From Clostridia bacterium (lineage in GTDB: Bacteria > Bacillota > Clostridia > UMGS1883 > UMGS1540), in contig JAZSDN010000050.1 in NCBI GenBank assembly GCA_045531205.1, forward strand, positions 6,407 to 70,406: a stretch of 64,000 bases of DNA. The letters run 5' to 3'. Below the pieces are notes generated by a model that had not been told where the DNA came from, did not search any database, and saw nothing but the letters and a program-made list of their open reading frames with translations. Of the stretch, positions 6,982 through 33,933 are shown one piece after another. A program made the position numbers and the translations under genes. The first letter of the stretch is position 1, and each line of letters starts with the position of its first letter.

Positions 6982-7767
6982 TTCTTCAAGCGCTGCTTTA
7001 GTAATATAAGGCAGCGTTTTCTTTTGTGAAACTCTTTTAAGCGTAGCTTTTGCCTCTTTTTCTTTTCCTATTTTAAAAAGTGTTTTGCCTATGTATAATT
7101 CATTAAGATATACGCTGTGTTTATTTGTAAAACCGATTTTTTTTGCATCGTCAAACATTGATTTTGCAGTTTTATATTCTCCTTCCGAAAAAGCAACCAT
7201 ACCTTTTGTTAATAGAAAATTCTCTTCTGGTAAATACTTTTTCGCTTTTTTCATATACTTTTCAGCAATTTTAAGAGAATTTGCAGCATTATCACTGTCG
7301 TCAAGTTCTGCATAAAACATAGCCAGATTATTGTAATAAATTGCCCACGATATCTTGTCTGTCGCTTTAATGTTTGCTTTTTTTGTGACAACAATGGCTT
7401 TTGCAGGTTTTTCTATTGCTTCATATCCCAAAGCAAGATTAAGTCTTAGTGATGTTAAAAATCTTTTTGTCTTTGTTTTTGAAATAAGTGCTTCGGATTC
7501 CGCAATAAATTTTTCGGCATTACATTCCTTATAAAGAATTTCTAAAAGTGCCTCTATTTTTTTGTTTTCCTTTCCGTTTCTTATAAAAGTAAATATTGCT
7601 ACAAAAACAGAAACCAGAAAAAGTGCTCCTGCAAAAGGAATTCTGTACGCTGCCGGTGACGAAAACATTATTATTAATATTGCTATCAAACTAACCAGTA
7701 TTAACACAACAGTTGATACTGTTCTTAAAATATTGTTAACACTTTCGCGGTCTATTGCAATTCTCAC
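6958..7767 (-). CDS. TPR-repeat membrane protein (hypothetical)
   Basis: 269 aa with two N-terminal TM helices followed by TPR-like repeats ([14 protein letters not shown]..., [25 protein letters not shown]). Its 3' end overlaps argH by 24 nt, convergently. Confidence 0.5.
6990..7025 (+). terminator. Hairpin plus T-run after argH; lies inside the 3' end of the convergent gene
   Basis: CGCTGC(6991-6996)...GCAGCG(7011-7016) followed by TTTTCTTTT. Confidence 0.4.
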
Positions 7768-8909
7768 TTCAGTTCCTCCAAAACAGACTTAATATCATTG
7801 CTGCCAAGCAATTCTTTTGCTTTTAAAATGCTATCGTAATTTGAAAGCTGACTGATTGTTTTTAAGATGTCTTCTGATGACATTTCGTTTACAGTTTCGT
7901 CGTGCTTAAATAAAAGTGCAGCTGCAATACCTGCTTCAATGAAGGTTGTATCAACATTTTGTTCTTTGCACATATTGTAAGCACCAATAAGTCTGTCAGA
8001 AGGTGAAAGCTTACGTTTTAAGTCATTGCCAACTCTCTTAACTGTATCGCCAAGCTGACGGTTACCAAAACGGCTTATTAAATCATTTACATGGTCGAAA
8101 AGCTCAGAAACATCTGTATTATGACGTTTTGCTAAAGCAATAGCAGACTCAGTCATTGCACGGATAACAATAAGTTCGATATACGGATTTTCTATAGCTT
8201 CCCATATATATTCATATCCACAAAGATTTCCAAGATATGCGGTTATTGCGTGTCCCATATTATGAATATAGAGCTTTCTTTCTATATAAAATTCAAATGG
8301 TGTAAAGAGAATAGCATTTTTAATTTCAGGAATTTCTCCCTTGAAAGCAGCTTTGTCAAGAGGTAACTTATCAAAGGCTTCAACACATACTCTTAAGGGA
8401 TTATCGCCCTGCATCTCGGGTGTTTGAACAGGAACCATTCTGCCTATAGAAGCTTCTACAAAACCAACATTTTCAAGAACTGATACATCATCAAGATACT
8501 GTGATATAAGCTCTTTTAAAATTTTATCTGCACCTATTAAGTTTTCGCAGATAATTATATTAAGAGGTCTGTTACCTTCTGAAAAACGCAATTTTATACC
8601 TTCGGCTAAAGGTTTTGCGATGAATTTTAAAATATTTACGCCTACAGCAGTTGCCATAATATCAGTATCAGCAATTGCTCTTGCTACAGCATTTATATCT
8701 TTTCCGTCAATACAGGAAACGTTTTTTACCATAGTTTCTTTTGCGCCCTGTTTATAAAGAATGTTTACAGGGTATTCGCCAGCTTCATTTATTGCATTTA
8801 TAACTTCGTCTTTAACATCAACAAATGCAACATCATAACCAGATTCATAAAAAAGCTGTCCTATAAATCCTCTTCCAATATTTCCTGCTCCGTACATTAT
8901 TGCTTTCAT
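7764..8909 (-). CDS. mtlD: Mannitol-1-phosphate 5-dehydrogenase family protein
   Basis: 381 aa starting MKAIMYGAGNIGRGFIG, the Rossmann motif. Length and internal motifs (NLIGADK, HNMGHAITAYLG) match MtlD. No mtlA PTS gene is adjacent. Confidence 0.7.
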   Translation of the reverse strand: MKAIMYGAGNIGRGFIGQLFYESGYDVAFVDVKDEVINAINEAGEYPVNILYKQGAKETMVKNVSCIDGKDINAVARAIADTDIMATAVGVNILKFIAKPLAEGIKLRFSEGNRPLNIIICENLIGADKILKELISQYLDDVSVLENVGFVEASIGRMVPVQTPEMQGDNPLRVCVEAFDKLPLDKAAFKGEIPEIKNAILFTPFEFYIERKLYIHNMGHAITAYLGNLCGYEYIWEAIENPYIELIVIRAMTESAIALAKRHNTDVSELFDHVNDLISRFGNRQLGDTVKRVGNDLKRKLSPSDRLIGAYNMCKEQNVDTTFIEAGIAAALLFKHDETVNEMSSEDILKTISQLSNYDSILKAKELLGSNDIKSVLEELK

Positions 8910-27060: not shown

Positions 27061-28719
27061 TTATTTTGTAGAGTCTTTTTCAGATAATTTTCTTGCCATT
27101 TCAAGTGCTTCGTCAATATTTAGGGCAAAGTTTTCTTCTCCTACTTTATCATAAAAGCCTGATTTTTTCATTACCGAAAGCGGTTGCTCGTTAACGTGTG
27201 AGAAAATAACTGCAATTTTGTTTTCTGCACAAAAATCGTAAACCTTAATAAGAGTTTGAAGTGCCGAAACGTCAATTGTAGGCACGCTTCTCATTCTAAG
27301 AATAATTGCTTTGTAACCTGATTTTATAGGAATTGAAGCAACAATATCACTTGTTGCAAAAAACATAGGTCCGTCAATTTCGAAAACCTGTGTTTTCTTT
27401 GGAACCTCTTTTAATCTTTCTCTTGCATTTTCTTCTGCTTCATCAGCCTTTGTCCACGGTCTTACGTGGGTAACCTCTGTCATTCTTTTCATAAAAAGAA
27501 TGACTGCAAGCAAAAGCCCAATTTCAATAGCAACCACCAAATCAAATACAACTGTTAAAACAAAGGTTAAAACAAGTACTATAATATCGCTTTTGGGTGC
27601 AGTTTTGCAGATTTTAACAAACTGACGCCACTCGCTCATATTATAAGCTACCATAAACAATACAGCCGCAATAACAGGCATTGGAATCCATGCTGCATAA
27701 GGCATTAAAACAACTAAAACAAGAAGTAATACAATAGCGTGAACAATGCCTGATACGGGTGTTTTTCCACCGTTTTTAACATTTGCTGCAGTTCTTGCAA
27801 TGGCGCCCGTTGCGGGAATTCCGCCAAATAATCCAGAGAAAATGTTACCTGCACCCTGGGCTATCAGCTCTGTATTTGAATGATGCTTATCCCATATCAT
27901 TCCGTCCGAAACAACGCACGAAAGAAGTGATTCAATAGCCGCAAGTATTGCAATTGTAAATGCACTTGGCACAAGCTGTTTTATCATTGCAAAATTTATC
28001 TCGGGCACGGAAAAAGCAGGAAGTGATTTTGAAATTGTATATAAATCACCAATTGTATTTACCTGCATTTGCAAAGCTTTTACCATTACTGTTCCTACAA
28101 TAACCGCAATAAGAGATCCGGGTATTTTTTTTGACACCTTTGGCCATATAATTAAAATTAAAAGTGCAACAGCTCCAACCAAAACAGCTTGCCAGTTTAT
28201 TGTGAATAAAGACTTTGCAACACAGGATAGCTTCTCTATAGTTTCAACCGCGTGTGCACCTTCCGGGAATGTAAGTCCCATAAAGTCTTTAAGCTGACCT
28301 ATTAAAATTGTAACCGCGATACCTGATGTAAAGCCCGTTGTAATTGTGTGAGGTATGTACTTTATTAAAGCTCCAAGTCTGAATAAACCCATTAAAATCA
28401 GAATAATGCCTGCCATAATGGTTGCAATAACAAGTCCCTCTGTGCCAAATGTTGCTACAATTCCTGCAACAATTGTAGCAAAAGCAGCGGTAGGACCTGA
28501 AATATTTACTTTACTTCCGCCTAAAAGGGCAATTACAAAGCCTGCTACAATCGCAGTATAAAGTCCTTTTTCGGGAGCAACCCCTGATGCAATTGCTAAA
28601 GCTATTGAAAGCGGCAATGCTATAATTGCTACAATAATACCTGCTACCACATCGGAAGCAAATGTCTTCATATTATAATTTTTAAGTTCCGAAAAAAGCT
28701 TAGGACTGAAAATGTTCAT
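27061..28719 (-). CDS. SulP-family anion permease with C-terminal STAS domain
   Basis: 552 aa. N-terminal Sulfate_transp membrane domain (ALPLSIALAIASGV, GPTAAFA) plus a C-terminal STAS fold. Confidence 0.85.
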   Translation of the reverse strand: MNIFSPKLFSELKNYNMKTFASDVVAGIIVAIIALPLSIALAIASGVAPEKGLYTAIVAGFVIALLGGSKVNISGPTAAFATIVAGIVATFGTEGLVIATIMAGIILILMGLFRLGALIKYIPHTITTGFTSGIAVTILIGQLKDFMGLTFPEGAHAVETIEKLSCVAKSLFTINWQAVLVGAVALLILIIWPKVSKKIPGSLIAVIVGTVMVKALQMQVNTIGDLYTISKSLPAFSVPEINFAMIKQLVPSAFTIAILAAIESLLSCVVSDGMIWDKHHSNTELIAQGAGNIFSGLFGGIPATGAIARTAANVKNGGKTPVSGIVHAIVLLLVLVVLMPYAAWIPMPVIAAVLFMVAYNMSEWRQFVKICKTAPKSDIIVLVLTFVLTVVFDLVVAIEIGLLLAVILFMKRMTEVTHVRPWTKADEAEENARERLKEVPKKTQVFEIDGPMFFATSDIVASIPIKSGYKAIILRMRSVPTIDVSALQTLIKVYDFCAENKIAVIFSHVNEQPLSVMKKSGFYDKVGEENFALNIDEALEMARKLSEKDSTK

Positions 28720-28754: not shown

Positions 28755-29288
28755 TTATTTGCAAAACTTTTCTACGTAGTTGTTAATGGCTTTATCAATT
28801 ATTTTAATTGACGTTTCGTGACCGCTTACTTCGTTTACAGCGGTTTCTTTATTTTCAAGATTTTTATATACGCTGAAAAAGTGACTCATTTCGTCAAAAA
28901 CATGCCCCGGAAGTTCTGTTATATCTTTATACATATTATAGTTCGGATCACTAAATGGAATTGCAATGATTTTTTCGTCATTACGTCCATTATCTATCAT
29001 TGAAATAACCCCTATAGGATACGCACGGACAAGTGTCATTGGTTCAATTTGCTCTGAACAAAGCAAAAGCACATCCAGAGGGTCGTTATCATCGCCATAA
29101 GTACGAGGAATAAAGCCATAGTTTGCAGGATAATGAGTTGAGGTGTACAAAATTCTGTCCAGCATAAGATAACCCGTTTCCTTATCCAGCTCGTATTTTT
29201 TCTTACTTCCTTTTGAAATTTCTATAACGCAAATAAAATCTTCTGCGTGTATTCTTTTCGGGGAAATATCGTGCCATATATTCGACAT
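28755..29288 (-). CDS. ppa: Inorganic pyrophosphatase (family I)
   Basis: 177 aa: ...EISKGSKKKYELDKETG...DGDPLDVL... Confidence 0.9.
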   Translation of the reverse strand: MSNIWHDISPKRIHAEDFICVIEISKGSKKKYELDKETGYLMLDRILYTSTHYPANYGFIPRTYGDDNDPLDVLLLCSEQIEPMTLVRAYPIGVISMIDNGRNDEKIIAIPFSDPNYNMYKDITELPGHVFDEMSHFFSVYKNLENKETAVNEVSGHETSIKIIDKAINNYVEKFCK

Positions 29289-29480: not shown

Positions 29481-30245
29481 TTAATCTACATACTCGCCAA
29501 GTTCTTTTAATTTTGTGATAATATCCTCTTTTTCTTTTTCAAGTTCTTTTATCTCTTTTTTATACCTATCAACATCACTTTTATATGTATTTATACTTAC
29601 ATTGCGTGTTTCTATTGTTCCGTAGCACACCTCCTGAGCTCCTCTTAACACACCAATATCCCCACTTTTAGTTGGACTAGTGCTTTTTTCCAATTCTGTA
29701 ATCCTCTTTTCATATTCCGCGATTTCATTATATTCGTCTTGTATATCATTTTCTAATTCAATGATTCTTTCTTCATTGTTAGATATATCGTTAGTCCGAT
29801 ATGAAATTGTACTATCAATCGACTCTAACCGATTTTTCAATTTATTCACATACTCCGCATATTCTTTCTTTTCTTGAGCAAGGTTTTCTTGCTTTTCTTT
29901 TTCAGCCTTAATCTTGTTCAAATTTGTTTGAATTTCTTGTTGTTTTTCTTCATTTCTATAGAAAATGCTTGTTGTCTTTTCCTTTAAATCAATCAAAGTG
30001 AGTACATCATTTTTCACTGTATACCTATATTCTGATGCCATACCCCAAAAGGAAATTGAAAGGTTATCTTCACCATATAATGAATAATCCATAGACATAC
30101 CATCAGATATTACTTTTCCATTAGAGTTAAATGATATTGTTTCTCCATTTTCAGCCATCCAATATCCCTCTACGGTTTCTTGCTCTTTGGTACATCCTGA
30201 AAGGATTAAAACCATCATTAATAATCCAATTATAAGTTTTCTCAT
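29481..30245 (-). CDS. Lipoprotein with long coiled-coil region (hypothetical)
   Basis: 254 aa. Lipobox LILSGC at the N-terminus. The C-terminal half is heptad-rich E/K coiled-coil. Confidence 0.5.
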   Translation of the reverse strand: MRKLIIGLLMMVLILSGCTKEQETVEGYWMAENGETISFNSNGKVISDGMSMDYSLYGEDNLSISFWGMASEYRYTVKNDVLTLIDLKEKTTSIFYRNEEKQQEIQTNLNKIKAEKEKQENLAQEKKEYAEYVNKLKNRLESIDSTISYRTNDISNNEERIIELENDIQDEYNEIAEYEKRITELEKSTSPTKSGDIGVLRGAQEVCYGTIETRNVSINTYKSDVDRYKKEIKELEKEKEDIITKLKELGEYVD

Positions 30246-30442: not shown

Positions 30443-31111
30443 TTATATTTTATAAGCCTTTTCGGTAGGAATGGCAAATACTATACCTCTTGCCTCGGAA
30501 TTAAGACCGAATTCTTTGTTTAAATCAAGCATAATCTGTTTACTTGTTTTAAGAGGTGCAAGAATACAAAGTATTTCGCGTTCACCTTGCATATCATCTT
30601 TTCCTAATGTTGCAAATTGTTCTGCTTCTGCCAATCTTCCTTTAATAACAGTTCCGCCGGTTGCTCCTGCTTTTCTTGCAACATGCATTACATCGTCGGA
30701 ATATCCTTCGTTCACAGATATAATAATCAAATTGTTATGATGTTCGTTTTTCATTGAACCGTCTCCCTTTTCTGCGTTTTTATCACTGTTAAAATTCAGC
30801 ATCTCGCTCAGAATTCTGCTTGCGGCAGAAACTTCTAAAATTATCATAAGTCCGCCATATTTTGAATGGCTTGCAAATGTGGTTCCAAAATTAGCCATCA
30901 TATTCTTTACAACACTTTCTGATCCAAGACTTATAATTATATCCTTGTCGTTTGTTCCAAGACCGAAAATGTCCATCATTTCAGTCGGTGCAGTGCCAAA
31001 CCCAACCGACTGAAAGTTTATTTTTATGTTGAGGTTTTCTAATTCTTTAATAAGCTTTTTCCCTTTATCACGTTCAACTATTGATAAAAGAAGCATAGGT
31101 TTTTTACTCAT
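30443..31111 (-). CDS. Tandem PII-like (GlnB-fold) domain protein, partner of the DUF1538-like membrane protein
   Basis: Start refined to M13 (ATG 31109-31111). GAGGAGGG SD 8 nt upstream, and the ATG overlaps the upstream stop (ctATGAGTAA). Two ferredoxin-like repeats (MLLLSIVERDKGKKLIKELENLNIKINFQSVGFG...; LIIISVNEGYSDDVMHVARKAGATGGTVIKGRL) resemble PII/GlnB-fold modules. Confidence 0.5.
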   Translation of the reverse strand: MSKKPMLLLSIVERDKGKKLIKELENLNIKINFQSVGFGTAPTEMMDIFGLGTNDKDIIISLGSESVVKNMMANFGTTFASHSKYGGLMIILEVSAASRILSEMLNFNSDKNAEKGDGSMKNEHHNNLIIISVNEGYSDDVMHVARKAGATGGTVIKGRLAEAEQFATLGKDDMQGEREILCILAPLKTSKQIMLDLNKEFGLNSEARGIVFAIPTEKAYKI

Positions 31112-32633
31112 AGGATTTTCCCTCCTCATCAAAGAATATAATATCATCCTCTATAGCACTTATTTCAGCATGAAGCTTTTTAATCATTTTGGCGTGTCTT
31201 CTTCTTTCAAATAAACCAAGCGTCTGAATGGTTATAAGCGGGGTCATGGCTATCATTGCAACAATTCCGAAAGCATCTGTCATAAGATTTCCGCCTATTG
31301 CTTCGCAGGCACCCATTGCAAACGGAAGCATAAATGTTGAGGTCATAGGTCCGCTTGCAACTCCGCCCGAGTCAAACGCAATGCCCGTATAAATATTTGG
31401 TACAAAAAAGCTTATAACTAACGAAATTGTATATCCAAAAATCAAAAACGGCATTATGGAGATTCCCGTTAAAACTCTGAGCATAGAAATACCAACAGAA
31501 ACAGATACGCCAACAGAAAGTGCAACGGCAACCGATTTTTGTGAAATAGCACCGTTTGTTATTTCGCTTACCTGTCTTTTAAGAGAATGTACAGCAGGCT
31601 CGGCAGAAACTACAAAGTAACCCATAATCATACCTACGGGCACAAGCATTTCCCTGAAAGAGTCTTCCGCAAGCTTTGCACCTATAAGTCTTCCTGCCGG
31701 CATAAACCCAACATTTGCTCCTGTTAAAAACATAACCAGACCTATGTATGTGTACACAAAGCCTACAGACATTTTTATAATATTGTGTATATGCGGTTTT
31801 CTTGTCGCAACCTGAAAAATAATAAACACCAAAACAATTGGTATAAAGGCAACCAAAACCTCTTTTGCATATATAGGCAATGCATTTGCAAACTGTAAAA
31901 AAGCTTCAACTGTAGTAGTAATGCTTGTTATTTCATAAGTGCTGACGGTTGGTTGCGGTTTGTAAAAAATACTAAGCAAAAGAACTGACAAAATTGGTCC
32001 TACACTGCAAAGTGCAACCAAGCCAAAGCTGTTTTCTCCGCTGTGTTTACCCTTTTTCAAAGACGCAAGACCTGCACCTAAAGCCATTATAAAAGGTACT
32101 GTAATAGGACCTGTAGTAACACCACCCGAGTCAAACGCTGTGGGCACAAATTCCTTTGGTGCAAAAAATGCTAATCCTATAACCAGAATATAAAAGATTA
32201 AAAGCAGATTGCGAAGAGGAATATTCTTTTTATTTCTTATAAGCGTAATGCTTAAGAAAATGCCAACACCTATACCTACGCAGTTTATAAGCAGTGCATT
32301 TGGAATGGTGGGGACCTGCTCTGCAAGCACCTGCAAATCAGGCTCTGAAACAGTAATAATAAAGCCAAGAACACCGCATATAAGTAACGGAATCATAATT
32401 TTATTGCTTTTATTTAAGGATTTGCCTATTCCTTCGCCCAAAGGCTCCATAGACATACCTGAACCCACCGTAAAAAAGCTCATCCCTAAAATCAGTAAAA
32501 TCGTTCCAAATAAAAACAAAACAAGCACACCTGCATCAAGTGATACAAAGGTGACTGACAAAATAAGAACTATTATCGCTATCGGTAAAACCGAGGAAAG
32601 CGATTCTTTAATTGATGCAAAAATGTGCGTCAT
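31104..32633 (-). CDS. DUF1538-like polytopic membrane protein with internal two-fold repeat
   Basis: 509 aa, about 12 TM. Two homologous halves, each containing a ...V(S/T)xxxGA..GGN-like re-entrant-looking segment. Translationally coupled to the PII-like gene. Confidence 0.55.
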   Translation of the reverse strand: MTHIFASIKESLSSVLPIAIIVLILSVTFVSLDAGVLVLFLFGTILLILGMSFFTVGSGMSMEPLGEGIGKSLNKSNKIMIPLLICGVLGFIITVSEPDLQVLAEQVPTIPNALLINCVGIGVGIFLSITLIRNKKNIPLRNLLLIFYILVIGLAFFAPKEFVPTAFDSGGVTTGPITVPFIMALGAGLASLKKGKHSGENSFGLVALCSVGPILSVLLLSIFYKPQPTVSTYEITSITTTVEAFLQFANALPIYAKEVLVAFIPIVLVFIIFQVATRKPHIHNIIKMSVGFVYTYIGLVMFLTGANVGFMPAGRLIGAKLAEDSFREMLVPVGMIMGYFVVSAEPAVHSLKRQVSEITNGAISQKSVAVALSVGVSVSVGISMLRVLTGISIMPFLIFGYTISLVISFFVPNIYTGIAFDSGGVASGPMTSTFMLPFAMGACEAIGGNLMTDAFGIVAMIAMTPLITIQTLGLFERRRHAKMIKKLHAEISAIEDDIIFFDEEGKSYE

Positions 32634-32645
32634 TCTACAATACCT

Positions 32646-33530
32646 CTAACCTAAAAAATGTTTTACTTTTTCACTGTTTTCTTCACAGTATTCTATTTCG
32701 GAAGAATACATTCTTACAACCTCAAGCATTTCTTCAATGCTTTTGCAGCCTGCACAAATTGTTCCTAAACACCATAAGCTTACAAGAGTAAACCCTACCC
32801 CGCTTTCAAAATGGCGGAATACAAAGTAGCAGGCAAGCTGCTCAAATATAATCTGTAAATCTTCTCTTTTTAATGTATATTCACATTCAAAAAAATTAAG
32901 CTTATAAAGTTCTTTTTCCCAAACCTTATCAAGCCGCTCCAAAGATATATAAAAATCATACAGTTCTTTATTTGAAAACTCAAATTTAAGTCCGTATTTT
33001 TGTGCAAGATTTTTAAGTCTTTCAAAAATACTTATATCTCTGTTTTGTAAAATATCAAAAACTTCTTTTCGTTCTTTAAAAAAATCCTGATTTTTTGCCT
33101 CTTTCGGTACTTCAATGTTAAACTTTTCTTTTTGAGTAAGCAAAATTTTTGCCGCTTCTTCGCAGCAAAGACCTAAACCTGTTTCGGTAAAATCTTCGTA
33201 AAAGTTGGAAAATCTCGGATGCATATAACATATATCACATATAGCACCATCGCCAAGCTCAAGTATAATATCACAAAGACCTTTTTTGTTTAAAAACGGG
33301 CAACGATCCCCCTCTTTTAAAATAAAGTGAGGAACCTCTCCTTCAATATTATTGCGTATCCGTTCGCCCATTTCCCCATCAAGAGAATTATATAAATCCA
33401 TTGTGTCTTGGTCGATATCAATTTCCCAGCCTATGCAACAGCTGTGCTTGCACTTATCGGCAATACATTTGAATTTTTTATAATAATTTGGAAATACTTC
33501 AGTCATCATTTTCACATTCGCTGTCATCAA
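32646..33530 (-). CDS. Cys-rich protein with CxxxxCxxxCC motif (YkgJ/FliB-like putative Fe/Zn-chelating domain)
   Basis: 294 aa. KFKCIADKCKHSCCIGW near the N-terminus. Further Cys pairs (CPF...C; CDIC). Confidence 0.35.
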   Translation of the reverse strand: MMTANVKMMTEVFPNYYKKFKCIADKCKHSCCIGWEIDIDQDTMDLYNSLDGEMGERIRNNIEGEVPHFILKEGDRCPFLNKKGLCDIILELGDGAICDICYMHPRFSNFYEDFTETGLGLCCEEAAKILLTQKEKFNIEVPKEAKNQDFFKERKEVFDILQNRDISIFERLKNLAQKYGLKFEFSNKELYDFYISLERLDKVWEKELYKLNFFECEYTLKREDLQIIFEQLACYFVFRHFESGVGFTLVSLWCLGTICAGCKSIEEMLEVVRMYSSEIEYCEENSEKVKHFLG

Positions 33531-33933
33531 TTTCTACAAGACCGTCGGGTGTTTCTACCATATCGTGGCGATTAAGTAAAAATCTTCTTACTACAAAAAG
33601 AATTGCAATAGCTGCAACTGTAATAAGATTTTCTAAAGGTGATGCATGTCCTACTATAAGCTGACGCGCAAGAGCAAATGCTAAAACCTCAATAATTGTT
33701 TCAGGTGTGTGCTTGCAAAGCATTTTTATAAGCTCGGCACCGATGGCAAGAGTGATTGCCTTGTCCAAAACCATAACAAGCGAAGCAATTCCGTTTTCAA
33801 AAAATGAAAGATTAAACATATCAATAACTGCTTGCACCGCAAAAATCAATACTGCAACACCAACAAGTATTGAAATAACAAGTTCGATAAGATAGCTTAT
33901 TTCAAACATTTTGTCCTGAAGTTTTTTTCTCAT
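33499..33933 (-). CDS. PsiE-like small membrane protein
   Basis: 144 aa, 4 TM. Architecture and length resemble phosphate-starvation-inducible PsiE. Weak assignment. Confidence 0.35.
   Translation of the reverse strand: MRKKLQDKMFEISYLIELVISILVGVAVLIFAVQAVIDMFNLSFFENGIASLVMVLDKAITLAIGAELIKMLCKHTPETIIEVLAFALARQLIVGHASPLENLITVAAIAILFVVRRFLLNRHDMVETPDGLVEIDDSECENDD

Follow-up and report, generated by a model that had tools for sequence, protein, structure and literature searches.

Does the PII-like protein that is encoded directly behind a DUF1538 membrane protein serve as the regulatory subunit of a transporter? PII proteins are among the most widespread prokaryotic signal processors, and the question is raised by two neighboring genes in a 64-kb stretch of DNA from a Clostridia bacterium (contig JAZSDN010000050.1, positions 6,407–70,406), which we call the window and from whose first letter all window coordinates are counted. 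An earlier note on this DNA had proposed a 509-amino acid membrane protein with an internal duplication and, translationally coupled to it, a protein of ∼220 amino acids built from two PII/GlnB-like modules, together forming an uncharacterized transporter plus signal-protein unit. The two genes are a self-contained module and are translationally coupled. They are best read as encoding a cation/proton transporter together with a PII-like subunit dedicated to its gating, a reading in which we infer the binding, gating, ligand, stoichiometry, and substrate, and to which we give a probability of roughly 60%.

Conservation and matched architecture of the gene pair

The minus strand carries both genes, at the places and with the lengths first proposed, and the junction between them (GATGAGGAGGGAAAATCCTATGAGTAAAAAACC), read directly, bears out their translational coupling. 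The TAA stop codon of the large gene (31104–31106) and the ATG start codon of the small gene (31109–31111) both fall within the 8-nucleotide overlap ATGAGTAA, and a Shine–Dalgarno-like sequence, GAGGAGGG, precedes this ATG. Because the small gene is translationally coupled to the large one, the two proteins would be made together. The small protein begins with MSKKP at the ATG at 31111 and ends at the stop codon at 30443–30445. The open reading frame (ORF) list also holds a longer reading of 234 amino acids, which starts at an upstream ATG inside the large gene. We favor the 222-amino acid reading because the homologues of the small protein are themselves 222 amino acids long and align with it from end to end (100% coverage).

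The pairing extends far beyond the window. A DUF1538 gene and a PII-like gene were adjacent at every one of ∼165 loci from several phyla at which the DNA reached far enough to be counted, and thus show the conserved adjacency of PII–transporter pairs; these loci were sampled from two seeds only, and exceptions may exist. In 80 of 80 related loci from other Clostridia genomes (66–86% identity, mostly ruminant-gut metagenome-assembled genomes), the DUF1538 gene, or as much of it as the contig holds, lies directly upstream of the PII-like gene, in most cases with the same overlap geometry. Seven of seven distant tandem-PII proteins (∼30% identity) likewise have a DUF1538 gene for ∼500 amino acids immediately upstream, and this set includes the spirochaete Breznakiella homolactica as well as a contig with a Por-secretion-tail gene. 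A search seeded with DUF1538 yielded nine plasmid or chromid records, and the PII-like gene was directly downstream in all seven that were examined. The earlier note had called the DUF1538/PII-like association a recurring one, and the genome-context survey confirms it.

None of the other window neighbors is conserved in the 80 close loci. These non-conserved neighbors comprise SulP/DauA-like, pyrophosphatase, coiled-coil lipoprotein, FliB-like methylase, PsiE, HAD, GtrA, and Dus genes. As the pairing is invariant while all other neighbors vary, chance adjacency of the two genes was rejected.

The architecture of one partner matches that of the other. Where both DUF1538 repeats are fused in a single chain, as in the window, the PII-like protein is a tandem of two modules (12 of 12 diverse loci, in addition to the 80 close ones). 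This fused type occurs in Clostridia, in a spirochaete, and on other contigs. Where the repeats are split, the PII-like protein has a single domain (61 of 61 loci): on alphaproteobacterial plasmids of Methylocystis and Chelativorans, separate genes for DUF1538-A and DUF1538-B are followed by a gene for one single-domain PII of 112–122 amino acids. With this single-domain PII as the seed, a scan of metagenomes retrieved 80 loci, and each of the 59 with enough upstream DNA showed DUF1538-A and DUF1538-B as separate ORFs followed by exactly one PII-like ORF. No exception to the matching of fused with tandem and of split with single was seen across the ∼165 loci.

The single-domain PII proteins of the split operons stand in the same place as the window protein, directly after the DUF1538 genes, and are direct homologues of its C-terminal module (C module; hhalign probability 99.5%, E values of 1e-22 to 1e-23 against the C-module profile and of 1e-11 to 1e-14 against that of the N-terminal module, or N module). 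Unlike the window protein, they consist of one module (106–122 amino acids) and exceed the Pfam P-II cutoff with 33–40 bits; their operons differ from the window in having two separate DUF1538 genes, often beside P2A-type ATPases, CBS-domain proteins, and CPA antiporters. The N module of Peptostreptococcales is still near the C type (E values of 1e-11 to 1e-17 against the C profile), which fits a duplication followed by divergence. At one locus on a conjugative Chelativorans plasmid (L086, 4690–5693), DUF1538-A is annotated as a 90-amino acid remnant upstream of intact B and PII genes. P-type ATPase genes for heavy metals and cations are found nearby, and this copy of the module may be in decay.

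Both genes already carry automatic names. In relatives, the Prokaryotic Genome Annotation Pipeline gives the large protein the name "DUF1538 domain-containing protein" and the small one that of "P-II family nitrogen regulator," so that the pair is a known unknown and not an unseen object. Full-text literature searches, with subscription journals outside their coverage, turned up no publication connecting DUF1538 and PII. Borrelia BB0017, a lead as a PII-like membrane protein, is an unrelated DUF2179/YitT protein, and leads from the Methanococcus and Heliorestis literature were likewise unrelated, being mentions in reference lists.

Duplications and folds of the two proteins

The large protein belongs to the Pfam family DUF1538 (PF07556), which it matches in two stretches with an E value of 5.4e-131 and 434.7 bits (cutoff 22.6). 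Its halves also align with each other (BLASTP E value of 2e-27, 25% identity over 222 columns), so that both the family assignment and the internal duplication proposed for it hold. Alignments of relatives show that each repeat has its own conserved motifs. Repeat 1 features SEPDLQVLA and AFDSGGVTTGPITVPF, with Glu-97, Asp-99, and Asp-168 invariant, whereas repeat 2 features AEPAVHSLK and AFDSGGVASGPMTSTF, with Glu-345 and Asp-421 invariant. The separate proteins of the split type follow the same division, the best match of Methylocystis DUF1538-A being repeat 1 and that of DUF1538-B being repeat 2.

An AlphaFold2 model of the large protein consists of helices alone, many of them short or broken (mean predicted local distance difference test score, pLDDT, of 81; predicted template modeling score, pTM, of 0.81) and was built from a shallow alignment of 40 sequences, most of them 75–86% identical. 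In both repeats, the helix breaks of the model carry the invariant acidic residues within E-P-D or E-P-A and F-D-S-G-G motifs, and we regard these residues as candidate ion sites. Foldseek found no significant match for the model in the Protein Data Bank (PDB; best E value of 0.012, template modeling (TM) score below 0.2), a result that a new fold, imperfections of the model, or a weakness of Foldseek on helical membrane proteins could each explain. Nor was a solved structure of any DUF1538 relative found. A profile search aimed at diverse DUF1538 proteins yielded no relative below 75% identity and had as its top match a protein of 692 amino acids (P0386). This protein is not a DUF1538–PII fusion; a segment of ∼180 residues is repeated verbatim in it, probably through an assembly artifact. 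No natural DUF1538–PII fusion was seen in the sequences examined.

The small protein is PII-like at the level of its family. By itself, it matches the Pfam P-II model (PF00543) over residues 128–222 only, with 17.6 bits (E value of 0.0049) and thus below the cutoff of 25; it matches no NCBIfam model, and a direct sequence search of the PDB returned chance matches only. An exhaustive search for its family gathered 1,451 cluster representatives at E ≤ 0.001, and the full-length members among the matches listed nearly all have 217–308 amino acids, mostly 217–260. Of 101 diverse members, 72 match Pfam P-II at E ≤ 0.01 (best 4e-12); named relatives exceed the cutoff with 28–66 bits, and in a Peptoclostridium relative both modules are recognized. 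The Pfam search that the earlier note had suggested is therefore unequivocal for the large protein, whereas the small protein remains below a threshold that its relatives pass.

BLASTP did not align the halves of the small protein with each other. The family profiles of the N-half and the C-half do align, over 96 columns (E value of 5.8e-14, hhalign probability 98.2%), and the protein is therefore an ancient internal duplication. In the AlphaFold2 model (pLDDT 85, pTM 0.77), the protein consists of two β-α-β-β-α-β units, each with the β2–β3 loop that defines the PII superfamily fold, and a low-confidence linker at residues 100–125. Foldseek aligned a piece of ∼100 residues of this model to PII proteins of Chlamydomonas and Synechococcus, archaeal GlnK, SbtB, and PstA with a probability of 1.00 and TM scores of 0.57–0.73 (target-normalized); the module covered is not reported, the two being homologous and of the same topology. 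The proposal of two PII/GlnB-like modules thus stands at the family level, by profiles, model, and Foldseek, and fails only in the protein's own P-II score. Neither of the two outcomes that would have spoken against the original proposal, a small protein lacking a PII-like fold and a large protein with a different, known partner, was encountered. At the sequence level, the best PDB match of the family profile is a weak one (E value of 0.0066) to 9p1x chain H, a "P-II family nitrogen regulatory protein" of 105 amino acids that was deposited with 12 chains. An alignment of the module profiles to a single GlnB sequence from E. coli gave weak E values of 0.016 and 0.098, which were not relied on.

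The two modules differ in where their conservation lies. The N module, the diverged copy, comprises strands 5–13, 31–39, 55–64, and 87–93 and helices 17–26 and 65–81 (DSSP assignment), and its β2–β3 segment holds the most conserved motif of the family, G37-x-G39-T40-A41-x-[ST]-E-x-x-D-x-x-G50-L-G...K56-D. Among the 101 diverse members, Gly-39 and Gly-50 of this motif are invariant and Thr-40 and Ala-41 are at least 95% conserved. The loop is modeled with a short helix (43–48) at a pLDDT of ∼89–94, and we regard this segment, which occupies the position of the T-loop, as a candidate contact surface for the transporter. Of the two copies, the C module resembles Pfam P-II and the single-domain PII of split DUF1538 operons more closely, and it features conserved A-G-A-x-G-G-T, E-K-E, and G-L-x-[TS]-x-A-x-G motifs. 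The corresponding loop of the C module has a pLDDT of 74–82, and Gly-171 is its only strongly conserved residue.

Transport, ligand, and competing explanations

In the reading that we prefer, the large gene would encode a DUF1538 (UmpAB)-family secondary transporter with an A-like and a B-like subunit fused into one chain, and this transporter would most likely exchange monovalent cations against protons. The small gene would encode a cytoplasmic regulatory subunit whose two PII-fold modules arose by duplication of the single-domain PII of split operons. By analogy with GlnK–AmtB and SbtB–SbtA, this subunit would bind a small-molecule effector; through its conserved loop segments, it would then attach to the transporter from the cytoplasmic side and thereby lock or release it.

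The proposed substrate follows UmpAB of Halomonas zhaodongensis: the Na+/Li+ tolerance of E. coli KNabc was restored by its pair of DUF1538 genes but not by either gene singly (PMC5484666). UmpAB exchanged Na+(Li+,K+) for H+ in a pH-dependent manner, and its subunits co-immunoprecipitated as a heterodimer; the clone ended after umpB, and PII is unmentioned in the paper (PMC5484666). Because the clone ended there, the PII partner is not needed for the activity of UmpAB in E. coli, which argues for a regulatory and not a catalytic role of PII. The window protein shares the Pfam family with UmpAB, and its repeats are A-like and B-like in the same order, with acidic and Gly-rich motifs in both. 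Judged by sequence, it corresponds to a UmpA-like and a UmpB-like protein fused in one chain, whereas UmpAB is a heterodimer of separate UmpA and UmpB of ∼245 amino acids each. The word "uncharacterized" of the original proposal accordingly suits the window protein, which is only a distant relative, and does not wholly suit the family, which includes the UmpAB antiporter (PMC5484666).

The surroundings of the split-type pairs provide independent but modest support for cation handling. In the 80 split-type loci (L097–L176), a P2A-type (SERCA/PMR1-like) cation P-type ATPase occurs in 26, a CBS-domain protein of ∼185–200 amino acids directly downstream in nine, and a CPA Na+/H+ exchanger with TrkA_C in four, counts that are not independent of each other, as several of these loci are near-identical.

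This dependence is one of several points that weigh against a PII-gated cation/proton transporter. The fused-type loci, to which the window belongs, show no cation-gene pattern, and such an ATPase is present in only three of 96. No riboswitch or other regulatory RNA was found at the Rfam gathering threshold upstream of the DUF1538 genes in the window and 10 diverse loci; over the whole window and both strands, no Rfam family at all, including tRNA, rRNA, riboswitch, and leader families, reached the gathering score. The large protein scores 176.3 bits against the NCBIfam equivalog model for UmpA (NF041627; cutoff 490) and 128.5 bits against that for UmpB (NF041628; cutoff 500), and because these values are far under the cutoffs, its substrate may differ from that of UmpAB. 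The evidence for UmpAB itself is a single study in a heterologous host. Gating of the DUF1538 transporter by a PII-like "ligand-gated plug" is an analogy, and both binding and gating are predictions. The known PII–transporter complexes, with AmtB–GlnK and SbtA–SbtB as the solved ones, are trimers on trimers (PMC10710835), so that their docking geometry cannot simply be copied to DUF1538 proteins, which form a heterodimer or a fused pseudo-dimer.

The ligand side of the analogy is weakened as well. Two PROSITE patterns describe canonical PII proteins, Y-[KR]-G-[AS]-[AE]-Y around the uridylylation site and [ST]-x3-G-[DY]-G-[KR]-[IV]-[FW]-[LIVM] toward the C terminus. Neither is matched by any of the 101 family members, whereas E. 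coli GlnB matches both. The contacts to ATP and 2-oxoglutarate (the GDGK motif of the B-loop and the equivalents of Lys-90, Arg-101, and Arg-103) are not conserved in the 101 members either. In a low-identity alignment whose register is approximate, Lys-90 is replaced by Ile, Val, Leu, or Met, Arg-101 corresponds to Gly in 62 of the 101, the chain ends before the position of Arg-103, and only the G-x-T-G-x-T strand and one Gly of the B-loop are kept. The earlier note had suggested a check for conserved nucleotide-binding residues; the canonical signatures and contacts are lost, and the family has a signature of its own instead. The small protein is, by these residues, PII-like and not a canonical PII, and the lost contacts to ATP and 2-oxoglutarate speak against sensing of the classical PII type. 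As the canonical contacts and signatures are absent, adenine-nucleotide sensing becomes a guess, and an adenine or cyclic nucleotide would be the default guess for the effector. Cyclic di-AMP (c-di-AMP) would be an attractive ligand in Firmicutes because of the analogy with PstA/DarA and SbtB, and a less obvious one for the split type on alphaproteobacterial plasmids.

The number of PII modules tracks whether the DUF1538 partner is a heterodimer or fused, which makes one module per repeat possible, an arrangement so far undescribed for PII proteins. A tandem PII that dispenses with three-fold symmetry might then form an intramolecular pseudo-dimer of its two diverged modules and dock in a 1:1 ratio on the fused repeats, one module on each, and single PII proteins might do likewise on UmpA:UmpB-type heterodimers. 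The pair would represent the first PII-fold regulator of a non-trimeric transporter; its target would be a membrane-protein fold of which no representative has been solved, and its ligand would be one other than ATP, ADP, or 2-oxoglutarate. We consider this geometry doubtful.

Pairing and regulation could also hold for a substrate that is not an alkali cation but another solute, such as an anion (bicarbonate, for instance), a divalent cation, or a small metabolite, the antiport of UmpAB then being incidental or confined to the Halomonas clade. We rate this as possible, though on balance unlikely. It would agree with the low UmpA and UmpB scores of the window protein, and the split alphaproteobacterial proteins score even lower; without a solved family structure or a PDB fold match, the fold does not constrain the mechanism. 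The neighbors are mixed too (SulP/DauA-like in the window; CorA, ClC, and GntP at other loci), and the P2A ATPases of the split type score nearest to Ca2+-ATPase models. Against it stands the single experimental result on the family, Na+(Li+,K+)/H+ antiport (PMC5484666). In addition, Asp and Glu residues that are conserved within the membrane in both repeats suit the binding of cations or protons, and CPA antiporters and cation ATPases recur beside split-type loci.

Two further explanations retain the pair and change the role of the PII-like protein. It might be an obligatory structural or assembly subunit, at least in the fused/tandem lineage, for which the PII fold is a mere scaffold and no ligand switch exists. 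The lost ligand-binding residues and signatures would fit such a subunit, as would the strict co-occurrence and translational coupling typical of stoichiometric subunits and the N-module loop, which is predicted to be ordered (pLDDT ∼90) and not a flexible T-loop. But UmpAB worked in E. coli with no cognate PII-like gene on the clone, and the C module retains a conserved G-A-x-G-G-T strand, with which G-I-T-G-M-T of E. coli GlnB is aligned. In PII proteins, this strand lines the nucleotide cleft, and to our knowledge all characterized members of the PII superfamily bind small ligands. We therefore judge a purely structural role improbable. Less probable still is a reversal of control, in which the membrane protein, as sensor or anchor, would sequester its PII-like partner according to ion flux, with the real targets of that partner lying elsewhere. 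Membrane sequestration of GlnK by AmtB provides a precedent, and PII proteins commonly have several targets (PMC10710835), but no third gene is conserved with the pair, the most conserved surface of the tandem protein is a single loop motif that suits one dedicated partner, and the architecture of the PII-like protein co-varies with that of the transporter.

Should the two proteins interact as in the preferred reading of a gated cation/proton transporter, PII regulation would be extended to a new geometry and to a new class of transporters, for which one functional report and no structure exist. The pair would offer a handle on how cation and pH homeostasis is tuned post-translationally in gut Clostridia and many environmental bacteria, and thousands of genes now named "DUF1538 domain-containing protein" or "P-II family nitrogen regulator" would receive a joint annotation that probably has nothing to do with nitrogen.

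Neighboring genes and comparison with known PII–transporter systems

Table 1. Positions of the gene pair and its parts in the window, and of examples of split-type neighbors (locus handles with locus coordinates)
Feature	Position	Strand	Description and basis
DUF1538 gene (large)	31104–32633	minus	509-amino acid polytopic hydrophobic membrane protein, two fused DUF1538 repeats
PII-like gene (small)	30443–31111	minus	222-amino acid soluble protein, two PII-like modules, low-confidence linker of ∼25 residues
Stop/start overlap	31104–31111	minus	8 nucleotides; sequence read directly
Shine–Dalgarno-like sequence	31120–31127	minus	8 nucleotides upstream of the PII-like ATG, inside the end of the DUF1538 gene
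DUF1538 repeat 1, ∼residues 4–223	31965–32624	minus	NCBIfam UmpA stretch, residues 4–223
DUF1538 repeat 2, ∼residues 266–475	31209–31838	minus	best Pfam stretch, full model (1–211 of 211)
N-terminal PII-like module, ∼residues 4–99	30815–31102	minus	diverged copy; model, column frequencies, hhalign
T-loop-position segment, N module, residues 40–54	30950–30994	minus	conservation, model
C-terminal PII-like module, ∼residues 125–222	30446–30739	minus	Pfam P-II stretch, residues 128–222
T-loop-position segment, C module, residues 160–176	30584–30634	minus	between strands 154–159 and 177–186, model
Split-type neighbor examples	L113:5402–8221; L135:5326–5889; L162:3936–5450		ion-handling flanking genes

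On its upstream side, the pair is preceded by a FliB-like gene (32646–33530, minus strand) that ends 12 nucleotides before the DUF1538 gene and encodes a Cys-rich protein of 294 amino acids. This protein scores 174 bits against the NCBIfam model of the flagellin lysine-N-methylase FliB (cutoff 85), over model positions 1–190 of 373 only, and has no Pfam match. The start of the gene overlaps the end of a PsiE-like ORF (33499–33933) by ∼32 nucleotides, and the gene is not conserved beside the pair in relatives. Downstream of the pair follow, all on the minus strand, a coiled-coil lipoprotein-like gene without a family match (29481–30245), an inorganic pyrophosphatase gene (28755–29288), and a gene for a SulP-STAS transporter nearest to DauA (27061–28719). 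In one relative (L035), the SulP gene comes directly after the PII gene, in another (L007) the pyrophosphatase gene does, so that the genes just 3′ of the pair vary between relatives; the window may have gained the lipoprotein-like gene locally.

Four of the distant pairs from Clostridia (L082–L085) are located between a gene for a class-Ib aminoacyl-tRNA synthetase and a CorA-family gene. CorA adjacency is found in three of these four loci, the gene at the CorA position of L082 having no Pfam match, and a YbjQ_1 gene precedes CorA in L084 and L085. A threonyl-tRNA synthetase gene then follows, in L083 with a T-box leader before it (7729–7933).

The closest precedents for the pair are other PII-fold proteins that are encoded with, or act on, membrane transporters. 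As in GlnK–AmtB, a gene for a PII-fold protein is genetically coupled to that of a membrane transporter in a conserved pair, and the protein has the β-α-β-β-α-β fold with a loop at the position of the T-loop. The gene order differs, as glnK precedes amtB in its operon, whereas the transporter gene comes first in the window. GlnK is a single-domain homotrimer, whereas the window protein has two modules per chain, lacks the uridylylation-site signature, the GDGK B-loop, and the C-terminal Arg, and scores below the Pfam P-II cutoff; AmtB is a trimeric ammonium channel plugged by GlnK, whereas the DUF1538 transporter is two-repeat or heterodimeric.

SbtB–SbtA resembles the pair in that a non-canonical PII-like gene lies directly downstream of the gene for a secondary transporter, and SbtB, which is thought to lock SbtA, is among the best fold matches of the small protein (probability 1.00, TM score of ∼0.65–0.72). 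SbtB is a carbon sensor and SbtA a bicarbonate transporter; the ligands of SbtB are AMP, ADP, ATP, cAMP, and c-di-AMP. SbtB is nonetheless a single-domain trimer that acts on a trimeric SbtA, whereas the window encodes a tandem chain next to a transporter of an unrelated family, and beyond the fold the two PII-like proteins share no detectable sequence similarity. PstA/DarA, which binds c-di-AMP, is, like the small protein, a protein of PII-like fold from Firmicutes (S. aureus PstA, 4wk1, TM score of 0.71), and it offers a plausible model for second-messenger sensing tied to ion homeostasis. It differs in being single-domain, in showing no family-level sequence match to the small protein in Pfam, NCBIfam, or the PDB profile search, and in that it is not known to be encoded beside a transporter. 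The loop lengths of PstA/DarA are, moreover, swapped relative to canonical PII (PMC6516651).

According to a review, PII control of transporters seems to be restricted to trimeric ones (PMC10710835). From the known PII–transporter pairs, the DUF1538/PII-like pair is set apart by its tandem chain, its non-trimeric partner, its lack of canonical signatures, and the structurally unsolved family of its transporter.

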